DNA from: an uncultured Candidatus Saccharibacteria bacterium
Lineage (GTDB): Bacteria > Patescibacteriota > Minisyncoccia > Phycocordibacterales > UBA2100
Assembly: GCA_964648335.1 (NCBI GenBank)
Contig: CAZYLZ010000003.1
Location: forward strand, 7,100 to 71,099
Length of the DNA: 64,000 bases
Direction of reading: 5' to 3'
Of the stretch, positions 19,033 to 59,400 are shown one piece after another (position 1 is the stretch's first letter; each line of letters starts with the position of its first letter). The position numbers and the translations under genes were made by a program. The notes beneath the pieces were generated by a model. It saw only the letters and a program-made list of their open reading frames with translations. It was not told the DNA's origin and did not search any database.

Positions 19033-19035
19033 ATA

Positions 19036-19776: not shown

Positions 19777-19809
19777 TCTATCTCACAAACCATGACCTGC
19801 ACAGTCTTA

Positions 19810-20136: not shown

Positions 20137-20139
20137 AAC

Positions 20140-20277: not shown

Positions 20278-20464
20278 AAACGCATCATACCTCTAATGGG
20301 ATAAAATTTCAATAGCTTGGCCATTAGTATGGATTCTCTGTCTATTTCGTCGGATAAGGGGTTGTCCTTTGAGTTATACACAGGTTACCCACACCTTTAA
20401 GCTCCATAGGGGTCAATAGGCGATTGAAAGCGATTAGGTATAATGGCTCCACCTTAGGGTGCGT
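20278..20464. promoter_or_regulatory. rpmH/dnaA divergent control region with a perfect TATAAT and a DnaA-box-like site
   Basis: TATAAT at about 20439-20444; TTATACACA (one mismatch to TTATCCACA) at about 20374-20382; intergenic between divergent rpmH and dnaA. Confidence 0.4.
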
Positions 20465-21811: not shown

Positions 21812-22043
21812 AAAAATTTGTGGGTAAGGTGTGGATAAGGTGTGTGTCGGGACTGCCTTTATACACTCCTTGTGTGGACAAAAAGCCAAGTGACGGCATT
21901 ATACACACAGCTATCCTTCTTTTCCGTGAGTTGTTAGTCCGGTAGTCCCCAGTTGAAAAGGTAATAAAACCGAGTAAATAAGCCAAAAAAAGACGTTATC
22001 CACTTATCCCCGCGCTTAATAGTATTAGTAGTAGTATTTATAC
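21812..22043. promoter_or_regulatory. candidate oriC: DnaA-box cluster plus AT-rich unwinding element in the dnaA-dnaN spacer
   Basis: Perfect TGTGGATAA (reverse of TTATCCACA) at 21830-21838; one-mismatch boxes at 21819-21827, 21873-21881, 21996-22004; AT-rich AGTATTAGTAGTAGTATTTATAC just before dnaN. Confidence 0.6.
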
Positions 22044-23153: not shown

Positions 23154-23154
23154 T

Positions 23155-23418
23155 ATGAATCGGATAGGGGATTTCCTTGCACGATTCAACCTTTTTGTCC
23201 CTGTAGACACGATTGTCTCGAGGACAATCAGTGATGGAATACGGGATGTGACCGGAGTCACTATTGATCCCAAGCAAATAACACATACCTCAGGAAAGGC
23301 GTTCGTGGCTACACATGCTGTAACTAAGACAAATATAGCCCTTAATCAAAAGAAGATACTCGAAACAGTGAATCTACGACTTAAGCCCTATAAGGTGTCT
23401 TTAAGCTCGATCAGTTGA
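23155..23418 (+). CDS. small hypothetical protein downstream of dnaN (possible DUF721/DciA-like)
   Basis: 87-aa ORF starting 2 nt after the dnaN stop; weak resemblance (N-terminal ...GDFLARF...) to DUF721 proteins that commonly follow dnaN. Confidence 0.3.
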   Translation: MNRIGDFLARFNLFVPVDTIVSRTISDGIRDVTGVTIDPKQITHTSGKAFVATHAVTKTNIALNQKKILETVNLRLKPYKVSLSSIS

Positions 23419-25896
23419 CTACTCGACCGTTACAGCAACCTGAGAAGAGTATCCTCCTGAGTCACCACCAGTCACTGCGCGGATTATTACGGTACCTGGT
23501 TCGCTTGGCATGAAGGATATTGAGTATGGAGCACTACTAGAAGAGCCGATCGATACACCATTGATGTAGTAGGCAACATGACGTGTCTGACTGAGAGCCT
23601 CACCCTCTACAGTAACAGTTATCAAAGATCCGGATTTGACGGCACTGCCATCTGAAGGGGATGTGATGGTGAAAACAGATGGAACATACGGCGCATTACC
23701 TATCGGTGTCGGTACCGAAGGGAAGTTTGGAAGATTCGAGGGGATACTAGAAGAGCCGAGATTTGGTTGTTGTCCCGCCCAGAGTGCTACGGGATACTCC
23801 CAATAGTTATATTGACCATCTGATTGAGGATTCGAAGGGGGTGGTCCTAATGGGTCGTCCTTATTAACATACTGCAGAATATCATGCACGACTCCGTTCT
23901 GATTCCATACGCCAAGAAATGGCGGTTTCATCGCCGGGTCTTCAGCTGGTGGTGCAGGGAATGGTGCGTCCGTCGTGCTTGCAAGTGCAAACTGCATGAA
24001 CTCATTCCACATCGGAGCAACGATGAATCCTGCAATCTTCTTTACCATAGGGGAATTATCGTTGTTACCAGCCCATGATCCGACAGATAACGTCGGTGTG
24101 TACCCAATGATCCACGTATCTCGATAATCATTAGTGGTTCCGGTTTTGACCGCTACATGATGTCCAGGTACTACAAGTGCTGAATTGACCCCAAATTCGG
24201 GGGTACGTGCCACATCGTCGGAAAGTATATCTGAGATCATATGAGTTACCTCGGGTGAAATCACTTGCGCACCAGCGGTATCCTTGTATTCCTCGAGAAC
24301 AGTACCTTTCCCATCCTCAATCCTAAGGATGACCGTGTCGCTATGGCGAACCCCTTCATTAGCAAATACACCATAAGCACTCGTCATTTCAAGAAGTGAT
24401 ACTTCGCCGCCGCCGAGTACGAGAGTAAGACCGTATGTTCCCGCATCAGCTAACGATGTAATTCCCATGCGTAAAGCGGTCGCAATGGATTCCTTTATCC
24501 CTGCAAGGTAGAGTAATTTAACTGCGGGAATGTTACGTGACTGGGCAAGCGCATCCTTAAGAGTCATGGGACCTAAGAAATTATTATCGTAGTTATCTGG
24601 CGAGTAGCAGATATCAGTGGTCTCGAAGAAATTCGGTGCGCAACTCGTTGAAAACTGAGTTTTGAGATCGAAGAGCACTGTTTTTTCTGTGTAGCCCTTG
24701 CCGAAAGCTGTAGCGTATATGAATGGCTTGAATGATGAACCAGGTTGCCGGTATGCTGTAGCAACATTGAACTTTCCATCGATTTTCTCGTCGAAGTAAT
24801 CGCGTGACCCGACCATGGTGAGTATTTGTCCTGTCTTGGGATCGACAGCAACCAAGGCTGCATTGCTCGCGTTGAATTGGGAGGCGTTCGAGAGGGCACG
24901 ACGCTTGACTATCTCTTCCGCTTTTTGCTGTAAGTTATAGTCGAGAGATGTTATGACCTTGAGTCCTCCGCTCTGGACCTGATCGGCGCCATATTTTGCC
25001 TCAAGATATTCTCTGACATAAAAGACAAAGTGGGGAGCCTTTATACCGTTTGATGCTTGATCCAAAAAAACCACCTTCTCCGCTTTTGCGACATCGTACT
25101 CTGCTTTGGTTGCGAATCCACGCTGGAGCATGCGTTCGAGAACGAGGTTTTTTCTGTTCTCAAGACCTTCGCGGTGGTTACCAAAAGGTGAATAGTAGGT
25201 TGGTGCCTGTGGTATGGCGGCGAGATATGCCGATTCAGCTAACGAAAGATCTTTCGCATCCTTCCCAAAAAAGGATTGCGAAGCCTCCTCGGCGCCATAG
25301 AGTGTCCCGCCATAGGGCGCCTCGTTAAAATACACCTCAAGAATCTGGTCTTTCGTGAAAGCTCGCTCGAGCTTGAGTGCAAGTATCCACTCCTTAACCT
25401 TACGGGTGATGGTCTTGTCAGTCGTAAGAAGTGTATTCTTCACCACCTGCTGAGTGATGGTAGATCCGCCTTGTCCGCGCAAAAGCTCTCCGGTTGTTAT
25501 GTCGGTATAGATTGCACGCGCTATCGCCTTTGGGAGCACCCCGTGATGTTGGTAGAAATCCGGGTCCTCGATGGCTATGGTCGCGTTTCGAAGATATAGA
25601 GATATCTCATTTAATGGAACCTTCGTCCTTCGGATCGATCCATGTACGTCATAGAGCAGGATTTTGCCGGTGCGGTCATAAATCTTGGTAGATTCGGGCA
25701 CGCGACGCGTCTCGAACGCTGTAATTGACGGTACTTTGAGTGTGGCGAACCAGATAAGCACGATGCCGGCGCAAAGGAAGAATATGATACCGACGATTGC
25801 GGCTATAAGTTCGATGAACTGACTTCTAGTGCGGGGCTTGCGCCGGCTCAACTCTCTTACAAAAGACGGCCAATGTTTAGAAGTGATTTTATTCAT
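23419..25896 (-). CDS. class A penicillin-binding protein (transglycosylase + transpeptidase), PBP1A-like
   Basis: N-terminal TM; GT51 motifs (IAIEDPDFYQHHGV; RGQGGSTITQQVVKN); transpeptidase SxxK-like (SSFKPF), SxN, KTGT (VKTGTTND); long Ser/Pro-rich C-terminal extension. Confidence 0.85.
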   Translation of the reverse strand: MNKITSKHWPSFVRELSRRKPRTRSQFIELIAAIVGIIFFLCAGIVLIWFATLKVPSITAFETRRVPESTKIYDRTGKILLYDVHGSIRRTKVPLNEISLYLRNATIAIEDPDFYQHHGVLPKAIARAIYTDITTGELLRGQGGSTITQQVVKNTLLTTDKTITRKVKEWILALKLERAFTKDQILEVYFNEAPYGGTLYGAEEASQSFFGKDAKDLSLAESAYLAAIPQAPTYYSPFGNHREGLENRKNLVLERMLQRGFATKAEYDVAKAEKVVFLDQASNGIKAPHFVFYVREYLEAKYGADQVQSGGLKVITSLDYNLQQKAEEIVKRRALSNASQFNASNAALVAVDPKTGQILTMVGSRDYFDEKIDGKFNVATAYRQPGSSFKPFIYATAFGKGYTEKTVLFDLKTQFSTSCAPNFFETTDICYSPDNYDNNFLGPMTLKDALAQSRNIPAVKLLYLAGIKESIATALRMGITSLADAGTYGLTLVLGGGEVSLLEMTSAYGVFANEGVRHSDTVILRIEDGKGTVLEEYKDTAGAQVISPEVTHMISDILSDDVARTPEFGVNSALVVPGHHVAVKTGTTNDYRDTWIIGYTPTLSVGSWAGNNDNSPMVKKIAGFIVAPMWNEFMQFALASTTDAPFPAPPAEDPAMKPPFLGVWNQNGVVHDILQYVNKDDPLGPPPSNPQSDGQYNYWEYPVALWAGQQPNLGSSSIPSNLPNFPSVPTPIGNAPYVPSVFTITSPSDGSAVKSGSLITVTVEGEALSQTRHVAYYINGVSIGSSSSAPYSISFMPSEPGTVIIRAVTGGDSGGYSSQVAVTVE

Positions 25897-26019
25897 ATGT
25901 GCCGCACCCGAGATGTGGGGATAATGTGTGGATTATAGAATGGAGCGACGGTAAGGCCAAGTTGAATTGTTCATACCTTAGTCGCTACCATAAGCAAGAC
26001 GCCAAACTCCATGAATTTA

Positions 26020-40098: not shown

Positions 40099-40261
40099 GT
40101 GGGTATGGTACCAAATTTACTACTAACGGATAGTATGGTTTTTTTTCGAAAATGAGGTGTCGCCTCGGGCTGCGAAGAAAATGGTCGTCACCCGTCGTTT
40201 CTTACTAAAAACGCGGTCGACCCCGCCTCGCAGCCAAGCTGCTCCTGCTCGGACCCATGTG

Positions 40262-40289
40262 AAAAAACAGTGCTCTAGCACTGTTTTTT
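40262..40289. terminator. bidirectional rho-independent terminator hairpin
   Basis: AAAAAA-CAGTGCT-ct-AGCACTG-TTTTTT perfect inverted repeat flanked by A- and T-runs, directly 3' of the minus-strand tRNA-Lys. Confidence 0.7.
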
Positions 40290-40297
40290 CTACTGGG

Positions 40298-40370
40298 TCC
40301 GCCCACCTGGACTCGAACCAGGGACCAACTCCTTAAAAGGGAGCTGCTCTACCAACTGAGCTATAGGCGG
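40298..40370 (-). tRNA. tRNA-Lys (anticodon UUU)
   Basis: Manual fold of the reverse complement: acceptor CCGCCTA/TGGGCGG, D arm GCTC-AGTTGGTA-GAGC, anticodon stem GCTCC/GGAGT with loop CTTTTAA, T arm CCTGG-TTCGAGT-CCAGG. Exact 5' end uncertain by 1 nt. Confidence 0.65.
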
Positions 40371-40431
40371 ATAGCTAATCGGCCGAACTATACCACTCAT
40401 CATGCGAATGCGCGAGGGGCGTGCCGGTCCT

Positions 40432-45218: not shown

Positions 45219-45794
45219 TTATCGTGATCCGCCGAGAATTTTCAACGCTTCGCGCAGTCGTGTGCTGCTTCCTTGGTGTTCGCGAGGGACGAGCTTGAGG
45301 GCGTCGCGAGCCTCGGAGCGTGAATAACCTAGGGCTTCGAGTGCCTCGACAGCGTCGGTGTCGCCGGTGTGTATTGCCTTTTCGCCTTCGATCGCGAGGC
45401 CGACCTTGTCGCGAAGCTCGATGATGATCTTTTCGGCGGTCTTTTTTCCAATACCGGACATCTTAGTAAGGTACGCGAGATTACCTTCGGCGATCGCACT
45501 TTTAAGAGAGCTCGGTGTTGCGACCGAAAGAATGCCGAGTGCCGATTTAGGTCCTATCCCGGTAACGGTAAGGAGTAGCTCGAAGAGGGAGAGCTCGGTC
45601 CGGGTCGCGAATCCGTAGAGATCGAGTGCCGTTTCGCGCACCGCCATGTGTGTCCAAAGCGATGTCCGCGTACCTACCGAAAGCCCACCTAACGTATCGA
45701 CGGCGCCAAAGACCTTGTACCCGACCCCGCCTGTGCTCACGATCGCATGGGTATCGCCTATATAGAGAACGGTACCCTCAAGATGACCTATCAT
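45219..45794 (-). CDS. ruvA: Holliday junction DNA helicase subunit RuvA
   Basis: MIGHLEGTV...GVGYKV (OB domain), tandem helix-hairpin-helix LLTVTGIGPKSALGIL / LTKMSGIGKKTAEKII, C-terminal domain III. The long upstream extension in the track is not RuvA-like and overlaps rpsT antisense. Confidence 0.8.
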   Translation of the reverse strand: MIGHLEGTVLYIGDTHAIVSTGGVGYKVFGAVDTLGGLSVGTRTSLWTHMAVRETALDLYGFATRTELSLFELLLTVTGIGPKSALGILSVATPSSLKSAIAEGNLAYLTKMSGIGKKTAEKIIIELRDKVGLAIEGEKAIHTGDTDAVEALEALGYSRSEARDALKLVPREHQGSSTRLREALKILGGSR

Positions 45795-45893
45795 GCTGCA
45801 ATCATACAATAGAGAGGGCAGAAGTTCATGGGTGTGGGGGCAATAACACAGATTAGTTGCTTTTTTGGGGTTTTTAGGTACTATAGCCCCCAT

Positions 45894-46160
45894 ATGGCTA
45901 TCACATCGTCTGCAAAGAAGGCACAGCGCGCATCTCTTAAGAAGCGCGTCTTCAACGTGCGCCGCAAAGACACCATGCGCGACGCCTTCAAGGACTTCTC
46001 TAAGCTTGTCGCAGCCAAGAAGGTTAAGGAGGCAGGTGCTATGGTCTCGACGGTCTACCAAGCGGTAGACAAGGCTGCAAAGCGCGGAATCATCAAGGCA
46101 AACGCCGCATCGCGCCGGAAAGCTCGCGTTGCACGCATGCTCGCTGGAATCTCGAAATAA
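45894..46160 (+). CDS. rpsT: 30S ribosomal protein S20
   Basis: MAITSSAKKAQRASLKKRVFNVRRK... classic S20 N-terminus; 88 aa from the internal Met. Confidence 0.85.
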   Translation: MAITSSAKKAQRASLKKRVFNVRRKDTMRDAFKDFSKLVAAKKVKEAGAMVSTVYQAVDKAAKRGIIKANAASRRKARVARMLAGISK

Positions 46161-46269
46161 CGGCTCAAAACAATCACAAAACCGCGCTTTCTGGCGCGGT
46201 TTTGTGTCGGGGTATCGGTTTTTTGGCTTCGGTCGTTTGTTATTGTAGACGCCTCTGCTTGCCGCCATT

Positions 46270-46515
46270 AGGGTGGCCGCGGCTCGCGCCGTCGCGCTGC
46301 GCCCTGCGACCATCAGGGTCGCGAGCACATTTTTGTGGCCACCGTAATTTGCTACTGCAAATTCGGCCGGCCCCGGCTCGGCACGCCTGCCTCCGCCGAG
46401 CACAAATCTGCGCTCACTCGATTTGTGTGGCTACCCATAATTTTCTGGTGAAAATTTGGTCAGCCCCGCCTCGGCAGGCCTTTGGCTAGCACAAACTCCA
46501 TGTATTCGTTTGTGC
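46270..46515. repeat. three tandem degenerate two-hairpin repeat units (about 70-90 nt), last one abutting the tRNA-Arg 3' end
   Basis: Each unit: inverted repeat GCTCGNG...CNCGAGC then AGCACAAA-loop-TTTGTG hairpin (CACAAATctgcgctcactcgATTTGTG; CACAAACtccatgtattcGTTTGTG); spacers carry perfect small palindromes AATTTGCtactGCAAATT and AATTTTCtggtGAAAATT. Confidence 0.5.
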
Positions 46516-46584
46516 TCCCGCTAGGAATCGAACCTAGATCACAAGCTCCGCAAGCTTGCATTCTATCCATTGAACTACGGGAGC
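46513..46584 (-). tRNA. tRNA-Arg (anticodon GCG)
   Basis: Reverse complement folds as acceptor GCTCCCG/CGGGAGC, D arm GTTC-AATGGAT-GAAT, anticodon stem CAAGC/GCTTG with loop TTGCGGA (G37), T arm CTAGG-TTCGATT-CCTAG, discriminator A. Confidence 0.65.
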
Positions 46585-46693
46585 GTCGGTCGTACTGTAG
46601 CATGTTTTTCGAGAATATCTATCTTTCTGGGACAGGCTGGTGCAATCCACTGTGCAAAGCGTTGGAAAAGGTGGGGGAGTGCCGCATGATATG

Positions 46694-49423
46694 GCTATGC
46701 ATCGATCTCGCGGCTCTGCGTCGTTGTTAGTAAATCTCTTCTCATTCGCCATAGTCGCTGGATTGTCACTCGGTGCCAGCGCCTATAGCCACGGCAAGGT
46801 CGCGCTCGGCATCGACGTGCCACAACGCTCGCAGATGACTGCAGCGGCAGATGCGGCATCGTCGCGCGATGGCGACAATGGTCGAGGGGCCAGTGGAGCA
46901 CCAATCCCGAGCGGTGAAGAGATAGGAAAAGCTAGCGATTGTCCTGCAGGAACGACGCAAAACGTCTCGGCTGCCACCGGCGGAGATAATCCTGGTGAGG
47001 TCGCGATAGTGCAAGCGCCCGGCGCCGATCTTAACTCGTGCGTTGTTTCGTGGGATTCGCCCGATGGGAAAAAAATATTTGTCGCCGGAGCTTCGTCGTA
47101 CGCGGGAGCTATCAGTGCCTGTGGTGGCGCTGCGGCAACCACATGTGTTACACAAAAGATGGAAAGTCAGTTTCCAAACGGCGCCGCAAACGGAACTGCC
47201 GAAACGAAGGTAAAAGAGCTCGCTGGCCTTAAGGGATATGCTGCGCCGTCGGATGTTTTGAATGATGCGTTTGGTGTAGGTGGCTCCGAGGCGAAGGCTG
47301 CAGTGGAGAAAGAAGTCGAGAACAATCTTAAAGCGCTCGAGGCATATACCAATAAGACGATTAGCGCGACCGACGACAAAGACAAAGAAAGGCTTGGGTT
47401 AGGCACGGCCAACCTCGAGACGCTTAAAGAGTCGGTCGGCCGCATCCCAGCGGGGGACAGTCCGTTCAAAACCGACCTGCAGAATGAGCGATTAAATACA
47501 ACACCTGCGGGCGAGACTAAAACCAATCCGATAGGTAATACGTTCGGATCTCATCGTGCTGATGAACAGACTTCGATGGAAGCTCTCGATCGTTACAATT
47601 CAAAAAAGGAACTCGCGGGTACGTTCGGTGCTAAAGAGGCCGCTCTACAGATTGCGCGCAACGCATACGATGCCGGATTGCGAAACGATCTCACTAACGA
47701 CGAGATCTCTGCGCTTGCGAGGGATAAGGCAAAGGCAGAAAGCGAATATGAAGCCGCACTTAAGGCTAAGAATGAGCTAGATGCATCGAATAAAGAAAAT
47801 GCGTTGGCTAAGGCAGGTCCGTGCACGGCAGGTTGGCCGGCATGTGCTATTCGCGAAAACATCGTGAACCCCATACGGCAATTTATTGGGTGGGCACCTA
47901 TCCAAGAAACGCCCGGTGCTGGCGGCGTAAAAACTGAAACCGCAGTTGCGGGCGCTGCGACAACAAATACGGTTCCAACTACGCGCGAAACTGTCTCGAA
48001 TTCCGTAAACCCTGCCGATGCCTTTAAGGGCAACGAAAAACTTATCGCTGATTCCGATGAGCGACTCCATGCGGCGGTCGAAGGATATACGAAGGATGTA
48101 CCCACGGTGAGTGATCGCGACCACGATAAGGCATATGTCGAGAGTTGGGAGGCGCGCAAGGCGTATATCAACAACCTCGAAAAAACGCTTGCCGACCCCA
48201 AGACTCAGGAAGCGGGCAGCGCAGAAATTGGAAGAAAGCTCGATGCCGCACGAGCAGATTTAAAAGAGTTCGAAGGTCAGTTCAAGAAGGGGGCAGGGAG
48301 CCCTGGGGGCGCAGAAGAACTCCAGGCAATGAAGGATAGTCTGGGTGAACAAGCAGCTGCTGATAAAAAATCAGCAGACGATGCAGAGGCAGCGCGAAAG
48401 CGCGCCGAGCAAGAGGCTGCAGACCGCAGTCGCGTCGGGGGTGGAAATGGTGGCGGAGGGAGCGGAGGCGGGGGTGCAAATAAAAGTATCGCAGATGTGT
48501 TGAGTGGACTCATGGGTGGCGGGCAGAATTCGGCAGAGTGCGAGGCCGCAAAGTCGCAGTGCAGCGCAAATAGAAGTACGGCTGCGTGCCAAAAGGTTGC
48601 GCAGTGCCAGTCGCAAAGCAGCAACCCACTCTCGCAGCTCGGACAGATGCTCGGTAAAGCATTGGGCGGCGGTGGAAGTAGCGGGAGTGCCGCACAACCC
48701 GGTAGTGTTGCAGCGAATGCGGCGTGCAATGCGTATCCAGGAACGACGCTTACGAACGGGCAGTGTGCGTGCCAGCAGAGCGGCTACTCGTTCTACCAGG
48801 CAGGGACGACGCTTAACGGCGCGCCCGTACCGACATCGGGGTGTTACGCACCATCGGTTGCAGCTGGAACCAATCCTGGCGGGCAGACGCCTGTTGCCAC
48901 CATCTCGTGCGCAACAAATGCCGCAGATGTCGGTATGACGATTCCAGTCTCGTGGTCGTGCCAGAATTCGGTCACAGCGCGCGTCGACGGATTTACTCCC
49001 GCAGCACAAGAATTGGCACAGCTCTCGGGCTCGAGCCAAGTTACTGTCGCCAAACCAGCAAGCGGATCAAGCGTCGACTACACGGTCACGTGCATTAATC
49101 AGGGACAGACCGACGTAAAAAAGTGCACGGTCGCGATAGGTCAGCCTGGTCTTGCAATTGTTGCCATTCCCGACCGGCCCGAGGTAGGTAAGACGTCAAT
49201 CATCGGATGGTACTCGACCGGCATGAGCTCGTGCAGTATCAAGGGAGGAAGGATGAAGGGAGGTACCGGATCTCCAATCGACGAATTTACCAAAGAGGGG
49301 ACGAGCGGGTCAATAACCTTGCCACCCATAGAAGACGGCGATGTTTTCGAGGCAGGGCTTGCCTGCGTAAGTACGAGCGGACAGACAACCACCAAAGGAA
49401 TCGAGATAAGGCAGAAACAATAG
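46694..49423 (+). CDS. large secreted coiled-coil/Gly-rich protein with C-terminal tandem Ig-like domains (family-related)
   Basis: Signal/TM (LLVNLFSFAIVAGLSLGASA); long Lys/Glu/Ala coiled-coil region; Gly-rich (GGGNGGGGSGGGG; LGKALGGGGSSGS); C-terminal ...TIPVSWSCQNS...VTCINQG... β-sandwich repeats resembling C-termini of the 36782, 38123 and 50452 proteins. Start could be 46640. Confidence 0.6.
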   Translation, partial: AMHRSRGSASLLVNLFSFAIVAGLSLGASAYSHGKVALGIDVPQRSQMTAAADAASSRDGDNGRGASGAPIPSGEEIGKASDCPAGTTQNVSAATGGDNPGEVAIVQAPGADLNSCVVSWDSPDGKKIFVAGASSYAGAISACGGAAATTCVTQKMESQFPNGAANGTAETKVKELAGLKGYAAPSDVLNDAFGVGGSEAKAAVEKEVENNLKALEAYTNKTISATDDKDKERLGLGTANLETLKESVGRIPAGDSPFKTDLQNERLNTTPAGETKTNPIGNTFGSHRADEQTSMEALDRYNSKKELAGTFGAKEAALQIARNAYDAGLRNDLTNDEISALARDKAKAESEYEAALKAKNELDASNKENALAKAGPCTAGWPACAIRENIVNPIRQFIGWAPIQETPGAGGVKTETAVAGAATTNTVPTTRETVSNSVNPADAFKGNEKLIADSDERLHAAVEGYTKDVPTVSDRDHDKAYVESWEARKAYINNLEKTLADPKTQEAGSAEIGRKLDAARADLKEFEGQFKKGAGSPGGAEELQAMKDSLGEQAAADKKSADDAEAARKRAEQEAADRSRVGGGNGGGGSGGGGANKSIADVLSGLMGGGQNSAECEAAKSQCSANRSTAACQKVAQCQSQSSNPLSQLGQMLGKALGGGGSSGSAAQPGSVAANAACNAYPGTTLTNGQCACQQSGYSFYQAGTTLNGAPVPTSGCYAPSVAAGTNPGGQTPVATISCATNAADVGMTIPVSWSCQNSVTARVDGFTPAAQELAQLSGSSQVTVAKPASGSSVDYTVTCINQGQTDVKKCTVAIGQPGLAIVAIPDRPEVGKTSIIGWYSTGMSSCSIKGGRMKGGTGSPIDEFTKEGTSGSITLPPIEDGDVFEAGLACVSTSGQTTTKGIEIRQKQ

Positions 49424-50451: not shown

Positions 50452-53400
50452 ATGCGCCGCATACCGCAGGTCTTTTCTGCTTACGTCTTTATCATCGCCT
50501 GTGCGACTGTGATCACGGCGGTATCACTCTTGCCGCTTAGACTTGGTGCTGAGGTCGGGACTGCAAACTGCGCCGCGGGCTATGTAGAGGTGAATGGTGC
50601 CTGCAAGCCAGCGCAAGAGAACGAAAATGTAGGACAGACCAATGGTACGGATTCAAAAACAACTACTTCAAAAACGAACACTACAGATACTACTCATTGT
50701 GATCTCACTACATTTCAAGCTGCAGTAGGCGGATCACAGTCATGTTACGAACCCGGTGTGATCGGCGGAAAAAGCGGTCAGTGCAGTCCGCCGCCAGGAG
50801 CAGCTACCTGCGCCTCGCTAAAAGAGTCCGCCATCAACGCGATGGGGGGAGGTGGAGTAGGTGGCAGTGTACCCACAAAGCCCGAAGATATAATCTTCGG
50901 CCCCGAAACGCCGGTGCAGTCATCGGGGCAGGTCATTCCCAACTCGGGCCAGCAGGCTCCTCTCGAAGTAGTAAATACCAAGGTGGTGAATACTCCGAGC
51001 GCGCTCGACCGACTTGAGTCCATGCTCGGCCTCGGCGAAAACGGATCGGGAGACAAGCCGACGACGCTCTTGCCGGGACCGGCCTCAGCAAACTTGTCCG
51101 ACTACACCAAATTTACTCCGTACGACAACGGTGCTCCGCAGTTCGACATGGCATCGGTGCGCGCTGCGCGTGCGGGCGATGCGTTTTACGACGGCGTCAT
51201 GTCGAACCTGTTCAATAATCTTGATTCTCTACCGATGCAGTTTACGCCGCCGAACGTTGGCGACGTTTTAAGTGGAAGAATATTCGGACCACCGAGCACG
51301 TTTGCTCCTGTCGGTACCGCAGGGTTCACGCCGACGCCGGGGACAGGTATGGCACCGGGGCAGAATCTTGTTTCGCGGTCGGTTCCAACCAGTAATGTTC
51401 CAAATCCGCTCCAAAGTGCATACGACCGACTGACCAATCCGTTTTCTTCCTCTCCGCTTGCAGGGACAGCAGGCCTGCCAGGTGCACTTTTGGCGCAGAT
51501 GTCGCCGTCTGGTCTTGCTAGCCTTACTCCGTCGCAACAGGCTACTTTGCAAGAGCAACTCGCGCGGTATCAAGAACAGCAGCCACAGAACACCGTCTTC
51601 ATGACGACCGACGCGGCAGGGCGACCGGTGCTTGCTCCGACTCCTGATTCTTTGACGCAGCCGCTTACGAGCGACCCATTTGCAGGAGAGAGTGCTGCGC
51701 TTGCGCGACTCGCCAACGGCGACAACCTCCTCGATCCAAACACCCCTGTGATTCCCGGGACGACACCGAGTGATTCGCTCAAGGGTATCGTCGAGGTGAG
51801 TGCAGCAACCCCATTGACCCCTGACGGCGCGTCGCTTGTGTCGACCGAAGACGTGCGTGATGCATTCCAACGAGGAAATTTCGGTGAGGCAATTGCAAAG
51901 GCAGGAGAGGGGATGATCGAGTCTACACAGCGTCTCTTGGCTTCGATAGGGCAGGGTTCTATAAAACTAATAGGTTTGGGAGCCGTAGAAAATACCATGC
52001 AGTCCGTTTCCGATGCTCTGGGGTTTTCGGGCACGGGCGGCGTCGACACACTTGCGGGCAGTGGGCAGGACGATATCCCGACAGGGGACATCGTCTATAC
52101 CGATGCAAATAACAACGACCAAGGGACGCCGGGTGCACCGTCGGGAATTCCGGCACAGGCAACACCTGCATTGAGTCAATCCGAGAAAAATGCGCTTGCC
52201 GAGTACCAACAGGCACAGACCGCGGCGAACGATGTTGCCAACAGTACCGACGAACAAGTAAAAGCAGATGCGGCCGTCGCAAAGGCACAGAGTGCTCTCG
52301 AAAAATCGGGCATCGATCCGGAGACCGGTCAGAAGGTGGTCGAGACGAAACCGTTTAGTCCCGAGAATAATCCAGAACTCGGTGGGTCTAAGGAGCGTGC
52401 TGATGCGCTTAAGGACACAAATAAGACGACGACCGTCACGTATTGTGATCCTCCAAATTCCGATTGTACGAGGTTCAGGAATGTTGAATACCGGACTGAG
52501 GCGGAGGCGAAAGTTGCCGAGCAGGCTAACAAAACCGCAGAGTCGCTCGACCGTGACGTAAAGAGCATACAAGCAGAACAAAAAGCGCTCGCCGATGCAC
52601 GTACGTGGGATCAAAAGGCGCGTGATCTTTTGCCCGACAGCTTGCGACCGGCGCCGAGCAAAGATTACCTTATCTGCAATGACGCAGACTGCACTAATCC
52701 AAAACAGGCTACCTACAACGAGTACAAAACCGCGACCGATCAGCAAATCGAGAGCCTTAAGGCAGCAGAGGCAGTAGAGAAATCAAAAGCCGCCTATATA
52801 GAGAATGGACTGCCATCGTCTGACAAGGTGGCCGAGAAGCTCTCGGGCGCGACTCTTGATAACCAGCCGCAGCGGACCTACTACGATATGTTCGGTAATG
52901 AATATCGCAATGCCGAGGCGGCGAAGGGTGCCGATACTATTGCGCTCAATAACGAGTCACGTGCAGCGGCAATCAGCGGCACCGAAAAATCAGTGAGTGA
53001 CATGGAAGCTCAAAAGGCGAAATATGATGCCGACGTCCAGGCGCAGATCGATGCGGGGAAGATCAAGCAGGCGGACCCCTTTGTGGTCACCGTCAACCAG
53101 AATGGGAAGGAGGTCAAAATGTCGTTCGAAGAGTACAGGGCGCAGGCTGCAGCTAGCGTCGACGCGATGAAGCAGGAAATCGCCGATTCGAGTAAGGTGG
53201 CGCAAGATCTTAAACAGACCTTTGCACCACGTCCGGGCGACGGACCCTCGGTGCCACCAATAAGCGAAGAGGCAAAGATGCGAGACTTGGCCGAGCGGAA
53301 ACTAGAAGAGACCGCGGTGCTTAAAGCGGTCGAGGCTAAGACGAACCAAGACAAGGAGTTCGCTGCAATCGCCAAGCTTACCGATGCGCAGCGAAGAGAC

Positions 53401-56400
53401 CAGGCTCCGCAGATAGAGGCGCGTCTTGCACAGGCTGCCAAGGATGTGAATGCATACACGACGAAGGCACAAGAGTTGGCTGGTGTCGTGCCGCAGACGC
53501 AAGAGACGAAGGATGCTGTCGCCGCTGTGGAGCGTGTGCTTACCCAGGGTACGACACAGCTCGAGCGCAACATTGCCGGTCTCAAAGACTGGGGTAAGGA
53601 CATGACAGGACCTGTCGGGTTCATGGTGAGGTCTATCGGCGGAAGTCTCGGAAACGCGACAGAGCTGGTTACGAGTTATCTTCCGAATCAGCCCGCGCAG
53701 GTGGTGATAGGAAAGATGTTCGATACGAATCCCGAATTCACCAAGTTCATAACGCCGGTCAAGATCGCAGGCGAGCTCGTTAACGTGGTGAGCACGCCGT
53801 TGTTGCTCTCGTCACCAAGCCGTGCGATGGTCGAGAGTGCTCTTGCCTCGCAGCTTGAGGCGCGTACGGCCGCGCTCACATCCTCGCCGCTCATCTCTGC
53901 TCCATCGACCGCTGCCGCTACCGCCGACAGTGCGCTTGCGCGCGCTGCCGCTGTCCGTGCCGAGATTATGGATGCCGGTATACAGGCGCGCTTTGGGGCT
54001 CCAGTGGGTACGACCCCGGTAGTTGTGGAGTCGCGTCTGGCTCCTATTGCGTCGGTAGACGCGGCAGGAAATGGAGTGGTGCGCCTCGAGCCTGTCGTTA
54101 CCGCATCGTCGCGTGCCGAAGGTGCTGTTGTTGCGGAAGGACTCCCGGGTGCACGAGCAGGAGTGGGAGAGGTGGTCGGCGGCGGTATCGCTCGCGAGAT
54201 TACGGCAGCAGATATTGCAGCCAAAGCACCGGTTGCCGATTCGGCGTTCGGGCGCGTAGCACAGACCATAAAAGAAGCGGGTGGCCCTGACTTGCTCGGT
54301 CCGGCATGGAATAAGGCCGTGGCACCCGTAGAGACTGTAGTTTCGGGCGTCGAAGCAGCAGGTGCTTCGGCAGCACGACGCATCGATAACGCGGTTGCCG
54401 ATGCATACAAATTTATGAACGGTTCGTATCCGCCGGGCAGCTTTCGTGCATTTGAGGCGCAATTTCCGGCAGCAGAGAGGGCGGGGGTGAGTGCCGCCGT
54501 CGACGCCAATGCGGCGCTCGGCAGGACGCTCTCTGGCGAGGCAAAATCTGCCATCAGCGGTTATGAATCGGCTGCAGCGCAGGCAGCTGCCGAGCGTGCA
54601 CGTATGGAAGCAGCGACTGCCGCCGGACGTACGGCGACGGCTCGTGCCGAGGTGCAAGACGCACTAGCGGCTGCACGTGCCAGGCTCGAGCAGGCAGGAT
54701 TAGAGCCGGTGGCGGCAGATAGTCTCGCGGTGAGAACAAGACCGCAGGTCGTGCCGACGGTAGTGGAGTCAGGTGCTACCGTCGCCGAACTTCAAAAAGG
54801 AGTTGCGCTCGATGCAGCTGCTACAGCCAAAGCAGTACCTGTCGAGAATGTGTCAAAAGCCAATGCTGCGCTTGCCGATACGGTTGCAGCTGCTGACAAA
54901 GGCGCTGCCGCCCGGGCGATCAAGAATTACGAAAGTGCTCAGGCTGATTTTGCAAAACTTGCGCGCGAGAATCCGAGCTCGAGCGCGCTCGATGCATCGG
55001 CTGCACGCATGCGCTCTGCTGCGCAAGACCTCGCCAAGTACGACCTCGAGCCCGCGACAGCCGGTTCGAAGGTGCTACAGAAGAGTATCGTTCCACAAAA
55101 GGACATCGTGACGCTCACACAGATAGAGAAGGATGTGAGTCAGGCGGTAAGCAAAGGTGACTACGCGAAGGCCTACGATGCGCTTCAGAAAGAGCGGCCG
55201 GCGCTCGCGATGGGAGACAACTCGCAGGCGTACCTCTTGTCGCCGTCGGGCCGCGCCCGCATCGAGCTTGAGAACAGATTATTTAATTACACAAATGAGG
55301 TAGCGCAAGGGATACGGATGGAGAATGCGCTTGCAAAAGCGGAACTGGTCAATGTTGAAGCGGCAGCAAAGGCACAGCCAACGAGTTTCTCGACGAATAT
55401 TTCAAACGCGATAGCCGCTTGTTCCAAAGGTGGCTCGTGCGACCCGCGCATCCTGCTCACCAAGTCGCTCCCAAGTCCCGCACGGCTCTTGAACGGCGCA
55501 GTCACGGCAAGCATCGCGTTTCAGGCGCTGGCACCAACTGTTCAGGTGGCGCGCATGGTCGAAACTGGCGCTGCACGAGTAGCTGTAGTCTCGACTAAGG
55601 CGGCAAGTACGCCATACCTATATGGAAAGCTCGCCCCGGTCGTTTCGACAGACGCAGCGCGTGTCGCGTCGATAAAATCGGCAGTGACACCTGCACAGCT
55701 GGCGCAGTCGTATCGGATTCTCGCGTCGGTTCCCGAGGTAAAGGCGGCAGTAGCGTCACCCTCGGTACCGGCGGCGCAGGCAGCGGCAAGTCAGGCGACC
55801 GCAGTAGGCGACTACGCAACAAAGGTCGGATCTGCACTTAAGAGTGCCGGACTCGAGGCGACTCCCTTGGCGCAGACGATGGCACAGGTAGCGCGCGATC
55901 CGGCGCTTGCTCTGGCCGAGACTGCTCCGGTGCGCGCAGCACTTGCCGATGCAACTGCTCAGGCGCGAGCTGCGGCGATTGCTGCTTCGGCGGCAGGGAC
56001 TGCGAGTGTTGCGCCAGTTCCCGCGACACCTGATTTCAGGGGGCTCAACGCAACGGCTCCGGTGATAGCCGAGGTTCTTGCACAACAGGCGTTTCTTTCA
56101 GACCGGGGTCCGACTCTCTTCGAGAAACAACAACCAACAATACTCGGCTCGGCAGCAGAATTTATTAATCAAGTGGTCGGCATCACGCCTGCTGTTGCGC
56201 AGGGCCGCGACATTTGTGCAGGAAACAACTGCGGCGGGCATAAGTATGTCGGACAAGCGATGGAAAAAATTCGGTCAGTGCTTGGGTATGCACCAGGGGA
56301 AATGGGGGTACGTATAGGGAATGGCGGTGAGCGCTACGCCACATATGCAAATCTCGGCGAATGGCTTGCAGCCGACATAATCAAGCGTCAGGCATATGTG

Positions 56401-59400
56401 ACGCAGCTCGGAAAGGATGTGCTTTTGGGGAACGATACGAATAGGAGTCAAGATGCGGCGTGGGCTGTTCCTGATCGTGATCATGCGCAACCAGTCGCGG
56501 TTTTGCGACAGCAGCGTTTGAATGCGTTCGCGAAATCGGGCCTTACGACAGAAGAGGCGACGACGCCATTTACCGCAAATGACATAGATAGGATCGAGAA
56601 GATCTCTATCGCGACGGCCTGTGCTGAATATTCTAAGTGCAGTCCCGACTTTATTCCGCAAGCAGAGCGTGACCGCGCACGGCAGATATTGGCCCGAGCA
56701 GGTATTATTTCGCCGCAACAGACTGTTTCTGCTCCGTTAAGTGTGGCCGAGAAGCAAGTTGCGCAGAACGCGATCACCAATGCACAGGCTGCGGGTATGC
56801 GCATCCCAACGGCAGTGGCACAGGCACTCACGCCGTGGGCATTCCAAGAGCGACGCGCGGTCCTTGAGGGGCAGCGCATCATAAGTGAGGTCGCGCAGAA
56901 TCCGGCCCTTACCAATCCTGCTGCGCATGCGCAATACACCGCTCTCGCTCAAAGCGGCGGAGCAATACAGATTCCCGGTGCCGCCGGACAGACTATCTAT
57001 CTTCCAGGTTCAGAATTCTCGTCGGCGGTCCCGTCTCGTCAGTACCTGGTGATGCATCACCAGGCAGGTATGAACGCACTTAATCGCGCGACCCAGTATC
57101 ACACGGGTGCGGTAAATGTCGGCACTCGCTATTGGATTAAACAGAATGGGGACATAGTGGTGGCCCGAAGGGACGGGACTATCGAGGCGCATATCGGACA
57201 GATTGGCCCAAGCGATCTCGATGGGAGAAAGATTGTTTCAGCGAATAATGCAAACGCGACCGGTATTGAGTTCGAGGGATACGGTTATAACACGGCCGAG
57301 CAGATGCAGAGTGGTGTCGCACTTGCTCTTTTCTTGCAGACGCGTCATAGCATTTCCCCGGACCGCGTCATACCGCATCTTAAAGACACGGATCGCCAAG
57401 AGGGGGTGGCGATGACACAGGTGATGCGGACCATCGCATTCGTGCCACACAAAGCAGAAGAGCAGTTTGCAAAAATCGCCCAAGTCTTGCAAAAGGGAAT
57501 CCAAGGTATCGTGCAGGCAGCAGGGCAGAATGCTGCGACCTTGGCAGCAAAGATACAAGGCATCCAAAAGACCCTAAGGACTGTCTCGACTCCGTTTTCC
57601 GATTCCGCCGTAAGTAAGACGGCCCTTGCCCAGCCCATGTTTGCTACTCGAAGCGGTCCGCAATTGGGTGCTGTGCCGGCTGCCGAGGCAGGCGCAGTGC
57701 GAGCCGCACCCGCAGCGGCAGGCGCCGCTGCGGTCGTACCGTCTGCACTGGCGGTGACCGAAGCGCTTGCTAAGGCTTCGGCGGCAAGTGACGCGTACAA
57801 GCAGGCAGCAACGGGCTTTGTCCGTGCAGTCGAGAGTGGCGATCAGTCGCTCCTCAACTCTATCAATGCGCTCTCGAAGGCGTCAGACACCGCATACACC
57901 GAAGCATTTGAGGCGGCGCGGACGTACCTTGTCGAAGCAGGCGCTACAGACGCAGTAGTCGCTGCCAAAGCAAAGGCACTCAATGAAAGAGCGGTGTCGG
58001 CCAAAGCCAAGCTCGCATCTGACACAGCTTCCCTTAAGCAGAAAAATGCGCAATTGGCAGAGTATGTCGGCGCCTCGGACGCTCATGCCGCAGCGATGCG
58101 CGACATCATAAGCGAGGCGAAGGACCTCGTTGCGAAATCGCCAAGCTCGGGCATATCGCAAGTGCGTGTCACGACGGTACCAGTCTTGCCTGTCACCGAA
58201 AAGATTTCACCTCCGTCGAGTCTCAAGTTTCGTACTGGATCGAATATAAATCCAGAACAAGCCAGAGCATATCTCGCGACGGACGCTTCGATGATTCTCG
58301 GGGGAGATCCGAGTAGCGAAGGGTGGGATGCGCTCGCGAAAGCGGTCAAAGATTCAGGTGGCAGATTGCATATGTACGACTTCGGTCCTGGAGGTCCGAC
58401 TAACGGCGTTATGACCGTCGCAGAGAGCTCCGAGCAAGCAGCTAAGGCGCGCGAGCTTGGTCTTGCGCGTGATCAATGGCTCGCTGGTACATGGAACGAA
58501 GGAAAACCAACTGGGTGGCTCAAATCTTCGACCGATAGGATTGCCAAGTATCAGCCGTACTCGGTCGAATTCGACAACCTCGACAGGCTTCCGTGGCTGC
58601 GAAATGACGGCGCTGCCACCGTTTCGTTCTTCAAAGAATATCAAAAGTGGGCAGATGCGAACGGTGTCGCGACAAGGGTCATACTCAAGAACCTGGATCA
58701 AGTACAGTGGCAGGCGCTGGCGGGATCGATACGCTCTGGCGAACTTCGCGGTTCGACGTTCGCTAACATCGCGATAAACGAGGGTACTCTCGTCGCGGCT
58801 CCCGTCGCAAAAGCAATCGGAATAACGGAGGTGCGCACGACCGACAGCGGAAACTACCCGACGCCGAACGATTTGAGGTCGGACCCAGCTGCCAATGCGA
58901 TCTACGCTGCGTACCCGACCGCTGAGTCATCAGTAGGTGTGCGCACCGCGGGTGTGGGCAAGGTAGACGGCTTCGATCTCGCGCAAGCGACAAAGGCAGG
59001 GGTCAAACTTTCACTCGACCCACATGTTTTATCGACAGCTTCCGAGGAGGTTCCGTTCAAGATCGTGTATACCGATCCCGCTAGCAAACTCACTGCAGAC
59101 CTCACGATGGCCGACTATGCGCGCCTAACGCCGTCGGGCAGGAAAGAGGTGCAGATGGTAGTGACCGACGGGAATGGCAAAGCGCAAGCGCTTTCTCCTG
59201 CTGCGTTCGACGAATACATGAGCGCCAAGTTCAGTGTAGGACAGTCTGGCAACGCCGTGGCACAGCTCAAGAGTGACATTGAAAAGCTGACTGGAGTGAA
59301 GGCTACCGACATGAAGCCGCTTACGGGCAAAAATGCAACTACCGTGCACTCGAGCGAAGCAGGTAAGTACTCGGCGGTGGCAACCTATCGAAGTGGGGAT

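Follow-up and report, generated by a model that had tools for sequence, protein, structure and literature searches.

A folded module repeated in tandem behind tRNA-Arg and recurring behind tRNA genes of Patescibacteria

Introduction

Tandem, degenerate repeats right behind a tRNA gene and on its strand are known from E. coli tyrT (the 178-bp repeats or RtT RNA, RF00391), where one transcript carries them together with the tRNA and its processing yields a small RNA, each repeat starting with an 18–19-nt copy of the tRNA 3' end. Another E. coli RNA, 3'ETS-leuZ, derives from a tRNA trailer, is released by tRNA processing and serves as a short, Hfq-dependent sponge. REP and BIME sequences are simple hairpins found genome-wide in both orientations and linked to RAYT transposases, and the 3' ends of tRNA genes are classical integration sites. 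TIGR arrays, which occur in phages and CPR bacteria beside a Nop-domain Tas gene, are built of 8–12-nt edge and loop repeats, two 9-nt spacers and box C/D motifs, and are transcribed and cut into unit RNAs (PMC12045711).

Here we describe, in a 64 kb stretch of DNA (the window), three tandem copies of one folded module of ~70–120 bases on the minus strand behind tRNA-Arg(GCG). These share with the tyrT/RtT repeats their tandem, degenerate arrangement immediately behind a tRNA and on its strand, but RF00391 gave no match at E ≤ 10 over positions 45500–47200, the tRNA end and the unit junctions in the window have only 6 nt in common (CACAAA), and the module is a two-helix structure with covariation support, present behind many isoacceptors in many Paceibacteria species, mostly as a single copy. 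As we propose it, the module would resemble 3'ETS-leuZ in being a functional RNA from a tRNA trailer, freed by processing, whereas 3'ETS-leuZ lacks a conserved multi-helix fold and is not a repeated family behind many tRNAs. Like REP and BIME, whose copy number varies between strains, the module is non-coding, palindromic, intergenic and clustered, often just after genes or terminators; unlike them it occurs only behind tRNAs, always in tRNA orientation, with four copies in the window and with conserved internal loops. Relatives carry, as in att duplications with a crossover between T-loop and 3' end, a direct T-loop-to-3'-end copy on the far side of the insert, but this insert is only ~100–200 nt long, has a conserved fold and neither integrase nor cargo, and the window copies have no tRNA-segment repeat of at least 15 nt. 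With TIGR arrays it shares a tandem non-coding arrangement in parasitic bacteria and G·A-containing internal loops; its anatomy differs, however, with no edge or loop repeats, 9-nt spacers or box C/D motifs and, among the 20 large ORFs scanned, no Tas gene.

Results

Architecture of the array

A preliminary description of this region had reported three degenerate two-hairpin units between rpsT and tRNA-Arg, and the sequence features it described are all present at the coordinates it gave. The AGCACAAA..TTTGTG hairpins lie at 46488–46516 and 46401–46427, with a short one at 46326–46337, and the pattern GCACAAA-N(4-24)-TTTGTG has four matches in the window against 0.02 expected. Two AT palindromes, AATTTGCtactGCAAATT (46346–46363) and AATTTTCtggtGAAAATT (46439–46456), compare with 0.67 matches expected and are not significant alone. 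The best direct repeat in the array spans 47 nt at 79% identity with a spacing of 93 nt, and Tandem Repeats Finder reported no repeats there, which bears out the degeneracy of the units; since they are ~70–80% alike and have no spacers between them, the array is rightly described as not a CRISPR. Folding of the array is far stronger than that of shuffled sequence on both strands (z = -5.7 and -5.3).

The unit boundaries, by contrast, had been misdrawn and shifted once relatives were compared. The small palindromes taken to separate the units are in fact internal to them, each capping a long helix C; GGGTAGCCACA and GGTGGCCACA, read as unit starts, belong to the 3' arm of the same helix, and the GCTCGNG..CNCGAGC pairing does not correspond to the conserved helix register. 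The rpsT side proved irrelevant, as the elements belong to the tRNA strand. With these corrections, and with matches scored by R1, a covariance model built from relatives and defined in the present analysis, the features of the two tRNA loci are as follows.

46512..46584, minus strand: tRNA-Arg, anticodon GCG (ARAGORN and Rfam tRNA model, 69.1 bits)
46488..46516, minus strand: hairpin A3, AGCACAAAC / GTTTGTGCT (inverted repeat I11, 100% complementary)
46425..46492, minus strand: module 3, complete (R1, 57.8 bits, E = 5e-11, full length)
46401..46427, minus strand: hairpin A2, CACAAATC / GATTTGTG, 8 bp (inverted repeat I15 and pattern match)
46333..46403, minus strand: module 2, complete (R1, 56.7 bits, E = 9e-11)
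46306..46337, minus strand: short hairpin A1 (CACA AAAA UGUG, 46326–46337) and an extra hairpin (sequence and MFE fold)
46259..46309, minus strand: module 1, partly decayed (R1, 17.1 bits, E = 0.036)
46175..46206, no strand assigned: bidirectional terminator shared with rpsT, CACAAAACCGCGC..GCGCGGTTTTGTG (inverted repeat I1, 13 bp, 100%)
40294..40371, minus strand: tRNA-Lys (UUU) (ARAGORN)
40182..40254, minus strand: fourth, more divergent module copy behind tRNA-Lys, containing GAGGCGGGGTCGACC (R1, 29.3 bits, E = 8e-5)

Read along the minus strand, each copy consists of hairpin A (CACAAA..TTTGTG), an irregular helix B, a GG linker, the long helix C and ACAA. Hairpin A is the host tRNA's own trailer hairpin; it opens with the discriminator and the final bases of the acceptor, and one A comes after it. 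Helix B comprises a 3-bp stem (H1), a 3x2 internal loop (G-S-A / G-A), a second 3-bp stem (H2), a 2-nt bulge and a variable tip. Helix C has ~9 bp, the fifth of which is a near-invariant G·U, together with an invariant bulged A and an AT-rich variable tip, and the ACAA(A) tail is the same discriminator-plus-trailer sequence as that behind the tRNA-Arg acceptor stem. An alternative fold would be a three-way junction, with the ACAAA tail paired to the 3' arm of hairpin A.

The hairpin nearest the tRNA had been described as abutting its 3' end, and does so with a 5-nt overlap: hairpin A3 (9 bp, 11-nt loop, arms 46488–46496 and 46508–46516) has a 5' arm made of the last tRNA-Arg bases (..GAGCA) and the trailer CAAAC, and structures of this type also follow the tRNA at many further loci, L009 among them. 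CCA is not encoded in tRNA-Arg(GCG). In module 3, helix B (46468–46487) has a GCC/GGC H1 and a minimal tip, with the GG linker next to it, helix C (46429–46465, GGCUGACC..GGGUAGCC) contains the G·U pair, the bulged A and the AT palindrome 46439–46456 as its tip, and the tail, here ACAC, forms the 5' arm of hairpin A2. Module 2 has H1 GGC/GCC, loop GGA/GA and H2 GGC/GCC in helix B (46375–46397), and a helix C (46338–46372, GGCCGGCC..GGUGGCC) with the bulged A, the AT palindrome 46346–46363 as its tip and an ACAA tail. The G·U pair is kept in both (GGCUG../..UAGCC in module 3, GGCCG../..UGGCC in module 2), as is the ..AUU-A-.. bulge, a region lost from module 1. Module 1, the copy furthest from tRNA-Arg, is the decayed one, modules 2 and 3 being intact: its helix B (46281–46303) matches the consensus perfectly (GGC GCA GCGC-GACG-GCGC GA GCC), while helix C is reduced to ~5 bp and a 5-nt loop, 5 nt standing for 32 model positions of this helix in the R1 match, and it has lost both the AT tip and the ACAA tail. 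The extra hairpin beside hairpin A1 (GCGACC CUGAU GGUCGC, 46306–46322) is unique to its copy. Unit 1 was also considered as a tRNA pseudogene (73 nt, 7-bp outer stem), which was rejected as it has no T-arm and neither ARAGORN nor Rfam calls anything there.

The array is surrounded by ruvA, rpsT and the gene of a 927-aa protein without a Pfam domain. In eight loci with identical RpsT (L001–L008) the array is 100% identical throughout, hence they are useless for comparison; JGI samples 3300045330/-333/-372 contain identical contigs. RpsT identity of the closest relatives, with contigs from SRR23617192 and ERZ27296333, is 88% (P0002) and 83% (P0003). At present the array region breaks assemblies, contig L007 stopping exactly where the array starts.

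Distribution in the window and among relatives

Across both strands of the 64 kb, R1 gave exactly four matches, all on the minus strand and all behind only two tRNAs (three after tRNA-Arg, one after tRNA-Lys), with no module copies elsewhere on either strand; ARAGORN finds just these two tRNAs (46512–46584 and 40294–40371) in the window. The copy behind tRNA-Lys, where a terminator hairpin also lies at 40262–40289, was absent from the R1 seed alignment. Three units that are tandem, structured and tRNA-linked were thus correctly recognised in the preliminary description, which missed this fourth copy. The motif GAGSCGGGGYYGRCC occurs three times in the window against 0.09 expected, every time behind a tRNA. 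Searches of the window with the three units by nhmmer and BLAST found no dispersed copies, and a match at 54516–54561, inside a 3797-aa ORF, was not confirmed by the covariance model.

In ~125 Patescibacteria loci R1 has 60 further matches at E ≤ 0.01. Nearly all of them follow a tRNA on the same strand, or another module, at a distance of 8–130 nt, and most of the exceptions are at locus edges. Host tRNAs include Arg GCG/CCG/TCT, Lys, Val TAC/CAC/GAC, Ser, His, Phe and Pro. L009, which has the Mur ligase-ruvA-rpsT synteny in common with the window, carries one module each behind tRNA-Arg(GCG) and tRNA-Arg(CCG). Three modules with a 132-nt period are present in L077, the first identical to the third, and in L028 the whole unit is repeated, tRNA 3' end included.

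Presence is patchy: among the 37 module-holding loci, 43 tRNAs have a module and 58 do not, and for the same isoacceptor it is present or absent depending on the genome, which argues against an indispensable role in tRNA maturation. Modules at different tRNAs of one genome are often each other's closest relatives (L077 Arg-GCG #2 and Arg-TCT #1, 86%; L033 Lys and Arg, 80%). A metagenome scan with a lineage-specific pattern returned 12 loci with one real module (L152) and no close relative of the array. Viral contigs yielded no tRNA 3' end, and one of the 11 pattern matches in them was a real module, the other ten being chance matches in GC-rich coding sequence.

The module family was uncatalogued before, with no match in Rfam 15. 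Neither a matching family nor any ribozyme family (hammerhead, twister, pistol, hatchet, HDV-like and others) was found there, over 45500–47200 at E ≤ 10 and in eight module-bearing loci at E ≤ 0.1. Literature searches on tRNA-trailer motifs in CPR or Parcubacteria turned up nothing relevant except the TIGR-Tas paper, which concerns another kind of array. Group II intron domains V/VI, kink-turns or box C/D, hammerhead ribozymes and IS200/IS605 ends were compared with the module and set aside, as helix lengths and conserved nucleotides misfit and Rfam gave no match in support of any of these.

Covariation and strand

Covariance analysis supports the structured nature of the units. Nine of 14 pairs show compensatory double changes in a MAFFT alignment; in an alignment fitted to R1 itself, and thus to be read with that in mind, 98% of cells are paired and double changes occur in 12 of 14 pairs (95 cells), a level reached by none of 500 shuffles and compared with 27–40% in slid controls. 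On the opposite strand, 46 G·U cells would become A·C mismatches, and one pair is G·U in 31 of 33 sequences. The G·U pairs fit the tRNA-sense strand only. Covariation alone is no proof of RNA, because G·T pairs are tolerated in single-stranded DNA hairpins.

A plus-strand reading, with the array as the 3' UTR of rpsT, was rejected, since the rpsT terminator precedes the array and the minus strand is indicated by the G·U pairs as well as by the linkage to tRNAs. With dnaA, dnaN and the cumulative GC-skew minimum at ~18–22 kb, both tRNA loci lie head-on to replication; module orientation tracks the tRNA, not replication.

Terminators and transcription

In a minus-strand terminator scan only 46206->46175 qualifies, beyond the tRNA and all three modules, and no module hairpin of the window has a GC-rich stem with a U-tract. 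Hairpins A3 and A2 lack a U-tract, hence A3 is not a terminator. The transcription unit would therefore comprise tRNA-Arg and the three modules and end at 46206->46175, so that the modules would be made as RNA within the pre-tRNA. The arms of this terminator (CACAAAA..TTTTGTG) are those of hairpin A in relatives. It is also comparable to the hairpins that close the L077 array. Many relatives, L055 and L033 for example, have a strong intrinsic terminator as their hairpin A, as is the case behind tRNA-Lys in the window; where hairpin A terminates transcription, the module would be transcribed only via read-through.

Discussion

The preliminary description is partly supported as a whole. It had offered three options, of which a tandem small-RNA family fits best, judging from the conservation, the compensatory changes and the constant use of the tRNA strand in many Paceibacteria. 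We give an even chance to the reading that the module is an RNA co-transcribed with the tRNA, freed by tRNA processing and multiplying by local duplication; its transcription, its processing and any trans-acting partner are what we infer. A protein or nuclease may recognise a surface made up of the conserved loops together with the G·U pair and the bulged A. With A-CAA behind it, helix C resembles an acceptor-type helix end, hence an RNase Z-type endonuclease trimming the tRNA 3' end could also cut after each module, and such cuts would release stable RNAs of ~70–100 nt. Alternatively, the modules may work in cis by providing a 3' platform that aids processing or protection. Arrays would arise by local tandem duplication, with copies exchanged or copied between tRNA loci of one genome, which would give the family a semi-selfish, repeat-like population biology.

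The main rival is a mobile DNA element targeting tRNA ends, a selfish, non-autonomous one (MITE/REP/PATE-like) inserting at the base of the tRNA-trailing hairpin or in the T-loop-to-3'-end region. A transposase or recombinase with its gene at another place in the genome would recognise the conserved hairpins of the element in single-stranded or cruciform DNA, and the array in the window would represent three successive insertions or duplications. We consider this possible, though on balance unlikely. Much of the distribution is as expected of such an element: the module is patchy among orthologous tRNAs, uses at least 11 host tRNA types, varies in copy number with some copies identical (L077), often has its nearest relative at another tRNA of the same genome, and always has its left border at the hairpin base. 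In L050, L073 and L122 the same position, with the same kinds of flank, is taken by another module of ~95 nt that is unrelated to the first. Furthermore, the host tRNA 3' end frequently recurs on both sides of the module in relatives, once inverted and once direct; this bracketing and the close kinship of copies within a genome are typical of duplicative or mobile DNA. The direct repeats behind the module (24 nt in L088, 20 nt in L041, 17 nt in L056, 15 nt in L077) resemble a target duplication or att site.

These flanks, however, can be read differently. The inverted copy is specific to the host tRNA, which no standard transposition mechanism yields, and tRNA-end hairpins are also found at module-less loci (L131, L127, L020, L087), hence the inverted repeat belongs to tRNA trailers and not to the module. 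The direct repeats, 5–24 nt long, may be what tandem duplication has left behind, L028 being a case in point. The 20 large ORFs of the window include no transposase, integrase or reverse transcriptase, the 64 kb hold no copies away from the two tRNAs, and the window copies are only ~70–80% alike, which indicates no recent burst. In addition, the folding strand in the window is the leading-strand template, the wrong one for single-stranded DNA transposons of the IS200/IS605 type.

A broader proposal, that the module represents a new class of functional RNA for tRNA 3' ends in CPR, either a 3'-end-defining element or a guide-plus-scaffold RNA, seems improbable to us. In its first form it could be a small self-cleaving or nuclease-recruiting element that sets the 3' end of CCA-less tRNA precursors; in its second, a host-specific segment complementary to the tRNA's own T-loop-to-acceptor strand could guide a protein to that tRNA. 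If the module is such an RNA class, the inverted and direct tRNA-end copies that flank it in relatives would be the footprint of an undescribed way of copying modules between tRNA genes.

Stated specifically for a guide-plus-scaffold RNA or self-cleaving ribozyme, the idea is that the host-specific 8–27-nt segment right before helices B and C, complementary to the tRNA 3' end, would bring either a protein or the RNA itself to the tRNA precursor, which would then be cleaved, modified or subjected to quality control. We think this quite doubtful. Whichever the host tRNA, its 3' end is always matched by a complementary segment in front of helix B, the conserved scaffold has invariant unpaired nucleotides, size and junction layout are like those of small ribozymes, and CPR carry unusual RNA-guided systems such as TIGR-Tas (PMC12045711). 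But the complementary segment is most simply read as one arm, the 3' one, of the tRNA trailer or terminator hairpin, which is present without a module too, and a terminating hairpin A would leave the guide untranscribed. Neither a linked effector gene nor a Nop domain was detected among the 20 large ORFs scanned in the window, and no known ribozyme or guide family in Rfam matches.

That the units are decayed attL/attR remnants of repeated integrase-driven integration and excision at a tRNA 3' end, another of the original options, is strongly disfavoured and in our view very improbable. It draws on the established use of tRNA 3' ends as integration sites, on direct tRNA 3' copies starting in the T-loop which stand behind the module in relatives, reach 24 nt and leave the reading a slim chance for the family, and on the rve-family transposases and RhuM downstream of rpsT and tRNA-Arg in L011–L014. 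The window itself offers only the 6-nt repeat CACAAA, units 1 and 2 contain no T-arm or acceptor copy, and the 20 large ORFs include neither integrase nor cargo. Double-stranded att arms need neither compensatory changes nor a conserved G·U, one module stands behind many different tRNAs, and viral contigs lacked the tRNA 3' end and held a real module in one of 11 pattern matches.

The remaining option, in which the units would serve the convergent rpsT and tRNA-Arg genes as iterated terminators or REP-like 3' stabilisers, is just as improbable: the intergenic site between convergent genes, the hairpin-rich sequence (folding z ~-5.5 on both strands) and the frequency with which hairpin A is a true terminator in relatives would suit it, but rpsT has its own strong terminator at 46175–46206, upstream of the array, which is also the sole terminator-like site on the minus strand and lies beyond the array, no module hairpin in the window is a GC-rich stem with a U-tract, conserved unpaired nucleotides, a G·U pair and a bulged A are not terminator features, and the module trails tRNAs whatever gene adjoins.

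CPR or Patescibacteria have tiny genomes with little non-coding DNA, and with non-coding DNA so scarce, a 70–120-nt fold which recurs behind many tRNAs, is kept class-wide by compensatory mutation and has been amplified in tandem is unlikely to be junk. The tRNA genes of these organisms do not encode CCA, and their RNA-processing machinery is poorly known. If the module acts as RNA, it indicates that the formation of tRNA 3' ends, or tRNA-linked regulation, involves a so far unknown step or partner, and adds a well-supported family to RNA catalogues. If it is instead a mobile element, it would be of a new kind, aimed at tRNA ends and marked by unusual target copies that are both inverted and direct. 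In both cases, the covariance model can be used at once for annotating such regions.

The repeat array behind tRNA-Arg

The interval is bounded by two convergent genes and contains every feature listed in the preliminary description, including two AGCACAAA..TTTGTG hairpins and a third that is short, a pair of perfect palindromes rich in AT, GC-rich inverted repeats, and a hairpin having 5 nt in common with the tRNA 3' end.

Genes bounding the array
45894–46160, plus strand, rpsT, with its own terminator at 46175–46206
46512–46584, minus strand, tRNA-Arg(GCG)

Tandem Repeats Finder made no call on the array as the repeats are too degenerate, the best direct repeat being 47 nt at 79% identity with a 93-nt period. 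Folding was much better than that of shuffled sequence on both strands (z ~ −5.5). An identical RpsT is encoded on eight metagenomic contigs, and these are without comparative information because their arrays are 100% identical. Of these same-species contigs, L007 stops exactly at the array's first base, pointing to a break in assembly at the repeats, and L008 (about 860–934) departs from the window sequence directly 5' of tRNA-Arg, suggesting a strain-level rearrangement beside the tRNA.

RpsT homologues place the organism in the Patescibacteria/Parcubacteria, close to Kaiserbacteria. A relative's locus, L009, shares the Mur ligase-ruvA-rpsT synteny of the window (RpsT 69% identical) and carries, beyond rpsT, two tRNA-Arg genes (anticodons CCG and GCG) on the minus strand, with one window-like element behind each. 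Species-representative genomes were scanned for the tRNA-Arg 3' end with CAA, giving at least 120 loci, nearly all from Patescibacteria and many with the same element directly behind the tRNA. The anticodon of the CGN-family tRNA-Arg is GCG in the window, L009, L022, L039, L077 and many other loci; the usual bacterial anticodon for this tRNA is ACG (read as ICG). None of the tRNA genes examined encodes CCA, and their trailers start with CAA or CCG.

A conserved structured module

Unit borders were redefined from an alignment of about 30 instances. On the tRNA strand, each unit consists of a trailer hairpin A, whose 5' arm begins within the final acceptor nucleotides of the tRNA or within the tail of the unit before it, a single A, helix B, a GG linker, helix C and the tail ACAA(A). 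In helix B, H1 and H2 (3 bp each) are separated by an internal loop G-S-A / G-A and followed by a 2-nt bulge and then a variable tip. Helix C, of about 9 bp, carries a conserved G·U pair and a bulged A, and its tip is variable and AT-rich. With the unit redefined in this way, the palindromes previously placed between units prove to be helix C tips, and the 3' arm of helix C accounts for the supposed unit starts, GGGTAGCCACA and GGTGGCCACA.

RNAalifold recovered H1, H2 and helix C from a MAFFT alignment, with compensatory double changes in 9 of 14 pairs, and a covariance model (R1) was built from this alignment. R1 gave exactly four matches in the 64-kb window, all on the minus strand and all behind its only two tRNAs.

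Modules matched by R1 in the window
46425–46492, minus strand, complete module, 57.8 bits
46333–46403, minus strand, complete module, 56.7 bits
46259–46309, minus strand, module with perfect helix B and truncated helix C, 17.1 bits
40182–40254, minus strand, module behind tRNA-Lys, outside the seed alignment, 29.3 bits, E = 8e-5

The tRNA-Lys copy had already been indicated by a simple motif search (GAGSCGGGGYYGRCC, 3 observed vs 0.09 expected). In the array, a conserved structured module that is tRNA-linked and strand-specific is repeated three times in tandem; two copies are intact and one is decaying, and a fourth lies behind tRNA-Lys.

Among the other loci listed, R1 had 60 matches at E ≤ 0.01, nearly all following either another module or, at a distance of 8–130 nt, a tRNA on the same strand; those with neither ahead of them were mostly cut off by the locus edge. 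Host tRNAs were Arg (GCG/CCG/UCU), Lys (UUU), Val (UAC/CAC/GAC), Ser (UGA), His, Phe and Pro. In the model-fitted alignment, which is biased toward the R1 structure but agrees with the independent MAFFT result, 98% of cells pair and double changes occur in 12 of 14 pairs (95 cells). None of 500 shuffles matched these values, and pairing fell to 27–40% when partner columns were slid. Reading the opposite strand would turn 46 G·U cells, among them those of one pair with G·U in 31 of 33 sequences, into A·C mismatches, hence the folding strand is the tRNA-sense strand.

Transcription and replication context

The only minus-strand terminator-like site near the array (46206→46175, with CACAAAA..TTTTGTG arms as in the hairpin A of relatives) lies beyond the third module from the tRNA, and neither hairpin A3 (46488–46516, overlapping the tRNA 3' end) nor hairpin A2 (46401–46427) has a U-tract. 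From this arrangement, tRNA-Arg and the three modules probably form one primary transcript of about 400 nt.

Genes at the putative replication origin
20459–21811, dnaA
22044–23153, dnaN

These genes and the cumulative GC skew minimum put the replication origin at about 18–22 kb; both tRNA loci are therefore head-on to replication, with the folding strand as leading-strand template. As a low-GC stretch (0.47–0.49) also occurs in this region, within 18000–26000, the window probably spans the chromosomal origin. Module orientation tracks the tRNA, not the replication fork.

Our favoured reading, to which we give roughly an even chance, is that the modules are transcribed within the pre-tRNA and are either released as small RNAs or act in cis, and that arrays expand via local duplication. 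The conserved loops, G·U pair and bulged A would form a recognition surface. The end of helix C followed by A-CAA would mimic a tRNA acceptor end and trailer, so that tRNA 3' processing would free the modules as small RNAs; alternatively, they may be a cis-acting platform for processing or protection.

Distribution, flanks and a possible mobile origin

Arrays also occur in relatives, as in L077, where three modules follow tRNA-Arg(GCG) with a 132-nt period (the first and third identical) and two more follow tRNA-Arg(UCU). Presence is patchy: in the 37 loci holding at least one module, 43 tRNAs have a module and 58 do not, and for the same isoacceptor presence varies from genome to genome. A module's nearest relative is often at another tRNA of the same genome (L077 Arg-GCG second copy vs Arg-UCU first copy, 86%; L033 Lys vs Arg, 80%) and sometimes at a different tRNA in a different genome (L080 Arg vs L152 Val, 91%). 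The segment before helix B is host-specific, always complementary to the host tRNA 3' end over 6–27 nt, and in many loci helix C is followed by a direct copy of that end, up to 24 nt long and beginning in the T-loop or at the discriminator.

The patchiness, the similarity of copies within a genome and the target-derived flanks all favour the main rival, a non-autonomous mobile DNA element targeting the hairpin or T-loop region at tRNA ends. We consider this possible but doubtful, as no enzyme is linked to the module, orientation follows the tRNA exclusively whatever the replication direction, the inverted copy is host-specific, and copies are moderately divergent. Among 20 large ORFs of the window, none was found to encode an integrase, transposase, reverse transcriptase or Nop-domain protein. 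Both flanks can be accounted for otherwise. Loci without a module (L131, L127, L020, L087) also have hairpins including the last tRNA bases, so the inverted copy is the tRNA's own trailer/terminator hairpin, sometimes extended, and in L028 the whole unit is tandemly duplicated with the tRNA 3' end included, thus direct copies can be tandem-duplication remnants. Counting the opposite way to these two observations, three loci have a second, unrelated module of about 95 nt at the tRNA-Arg 3' end, framed in a similar way.

Loci with the second module
L050, about 640–830, minus strand
L073, about 6810–6930, plus strand
L122, about 2680–2830, plus strand

This second module is conserved and RNA-like (GGGGTCGGGAAAAC..CCGTGGAGGAAGG..GGRAAACCGTGG), has no Rfam match, and in L050 lies between two copies of the tRNA end, one inverted and one direct (17 nt). 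In long-flank variants, the inverted tRNA-end copy is interrupted, between its acceptor and T-stem complements, by an additional conserved hairpin whose loop is AACUGCUU (GCAAACTGCTTTGC).

Loci with the AACUGCUU-loop hairpin
L058, 4380–4410
L028, 850–875 and 1020–1045
L075, 3065–3090
L025, L134 and L135

In a lower-GC relative (L011–L014, 5584–10261), a RhuM-family gene and two rve-family transposases lie downstream of rpsT/tRNA-Arg, and in L011 a module copy (8239–8329) directly follows one transposase gene with no tRNA upstream, hence the tRNA was probably displaced by an insertion sequence. L135 (IMG/VR contig IMGVR_UViG_3300033463_005745), classified as viral, has a tandem array of three modules (2850–3319) whose long flanks resemble tRNA ends, and the stretch examined contains no tRNA. 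Either the contig belongs to a CPR bacterium and is misclassified, or the module is carried by a CPR phage or prophage. Elsewhere in the window, a glycine-rich 927-aa ORF without Pfam domains (46640–49423), its product predicted as probably secreted, lies downstream of the tRNA, and a giant 3797-aa ORF spans 50452–61845, with similar very large ORFs at the corresponding position in relatives. A TraG/VirB4-like P-loop ATPase (13870–15789) adjoining several ORFs without known domains may mark a conjugation or type IV secretion-like cluster.

That the module acts as a ribozyme, or as a guide-plus-scaffold RNA, is improbable. Readings as scars of att sites, as iterated terminators or REP elements, as tRNA pseudogenes or as a CRISPR or TIGR array are poorly supported, since a defining feature is lacking in each case.

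Relation to known elements

In working, the closest analogues of the module are the E. coli tRNA-linked repeats/RtT RNA and the functional 3' external transcribed spacers of tRNA operons, whereas its population behaviour is like that of REP/BIME-type repeats; it is a member of none of these. At permissive thresholds, Rfam 15 gave no matching family for the window and eight module-bearing loci, and no description of the module was found in full-text literature. We rate it as a tRNA-linked repeat or a trailer-derived structured RNA. The family is apparently uncatalogued, is widespread in Paceibacteria and is well supported by covariation; its structure, tRNA linkage and distribution are solid and would surprise specialists.
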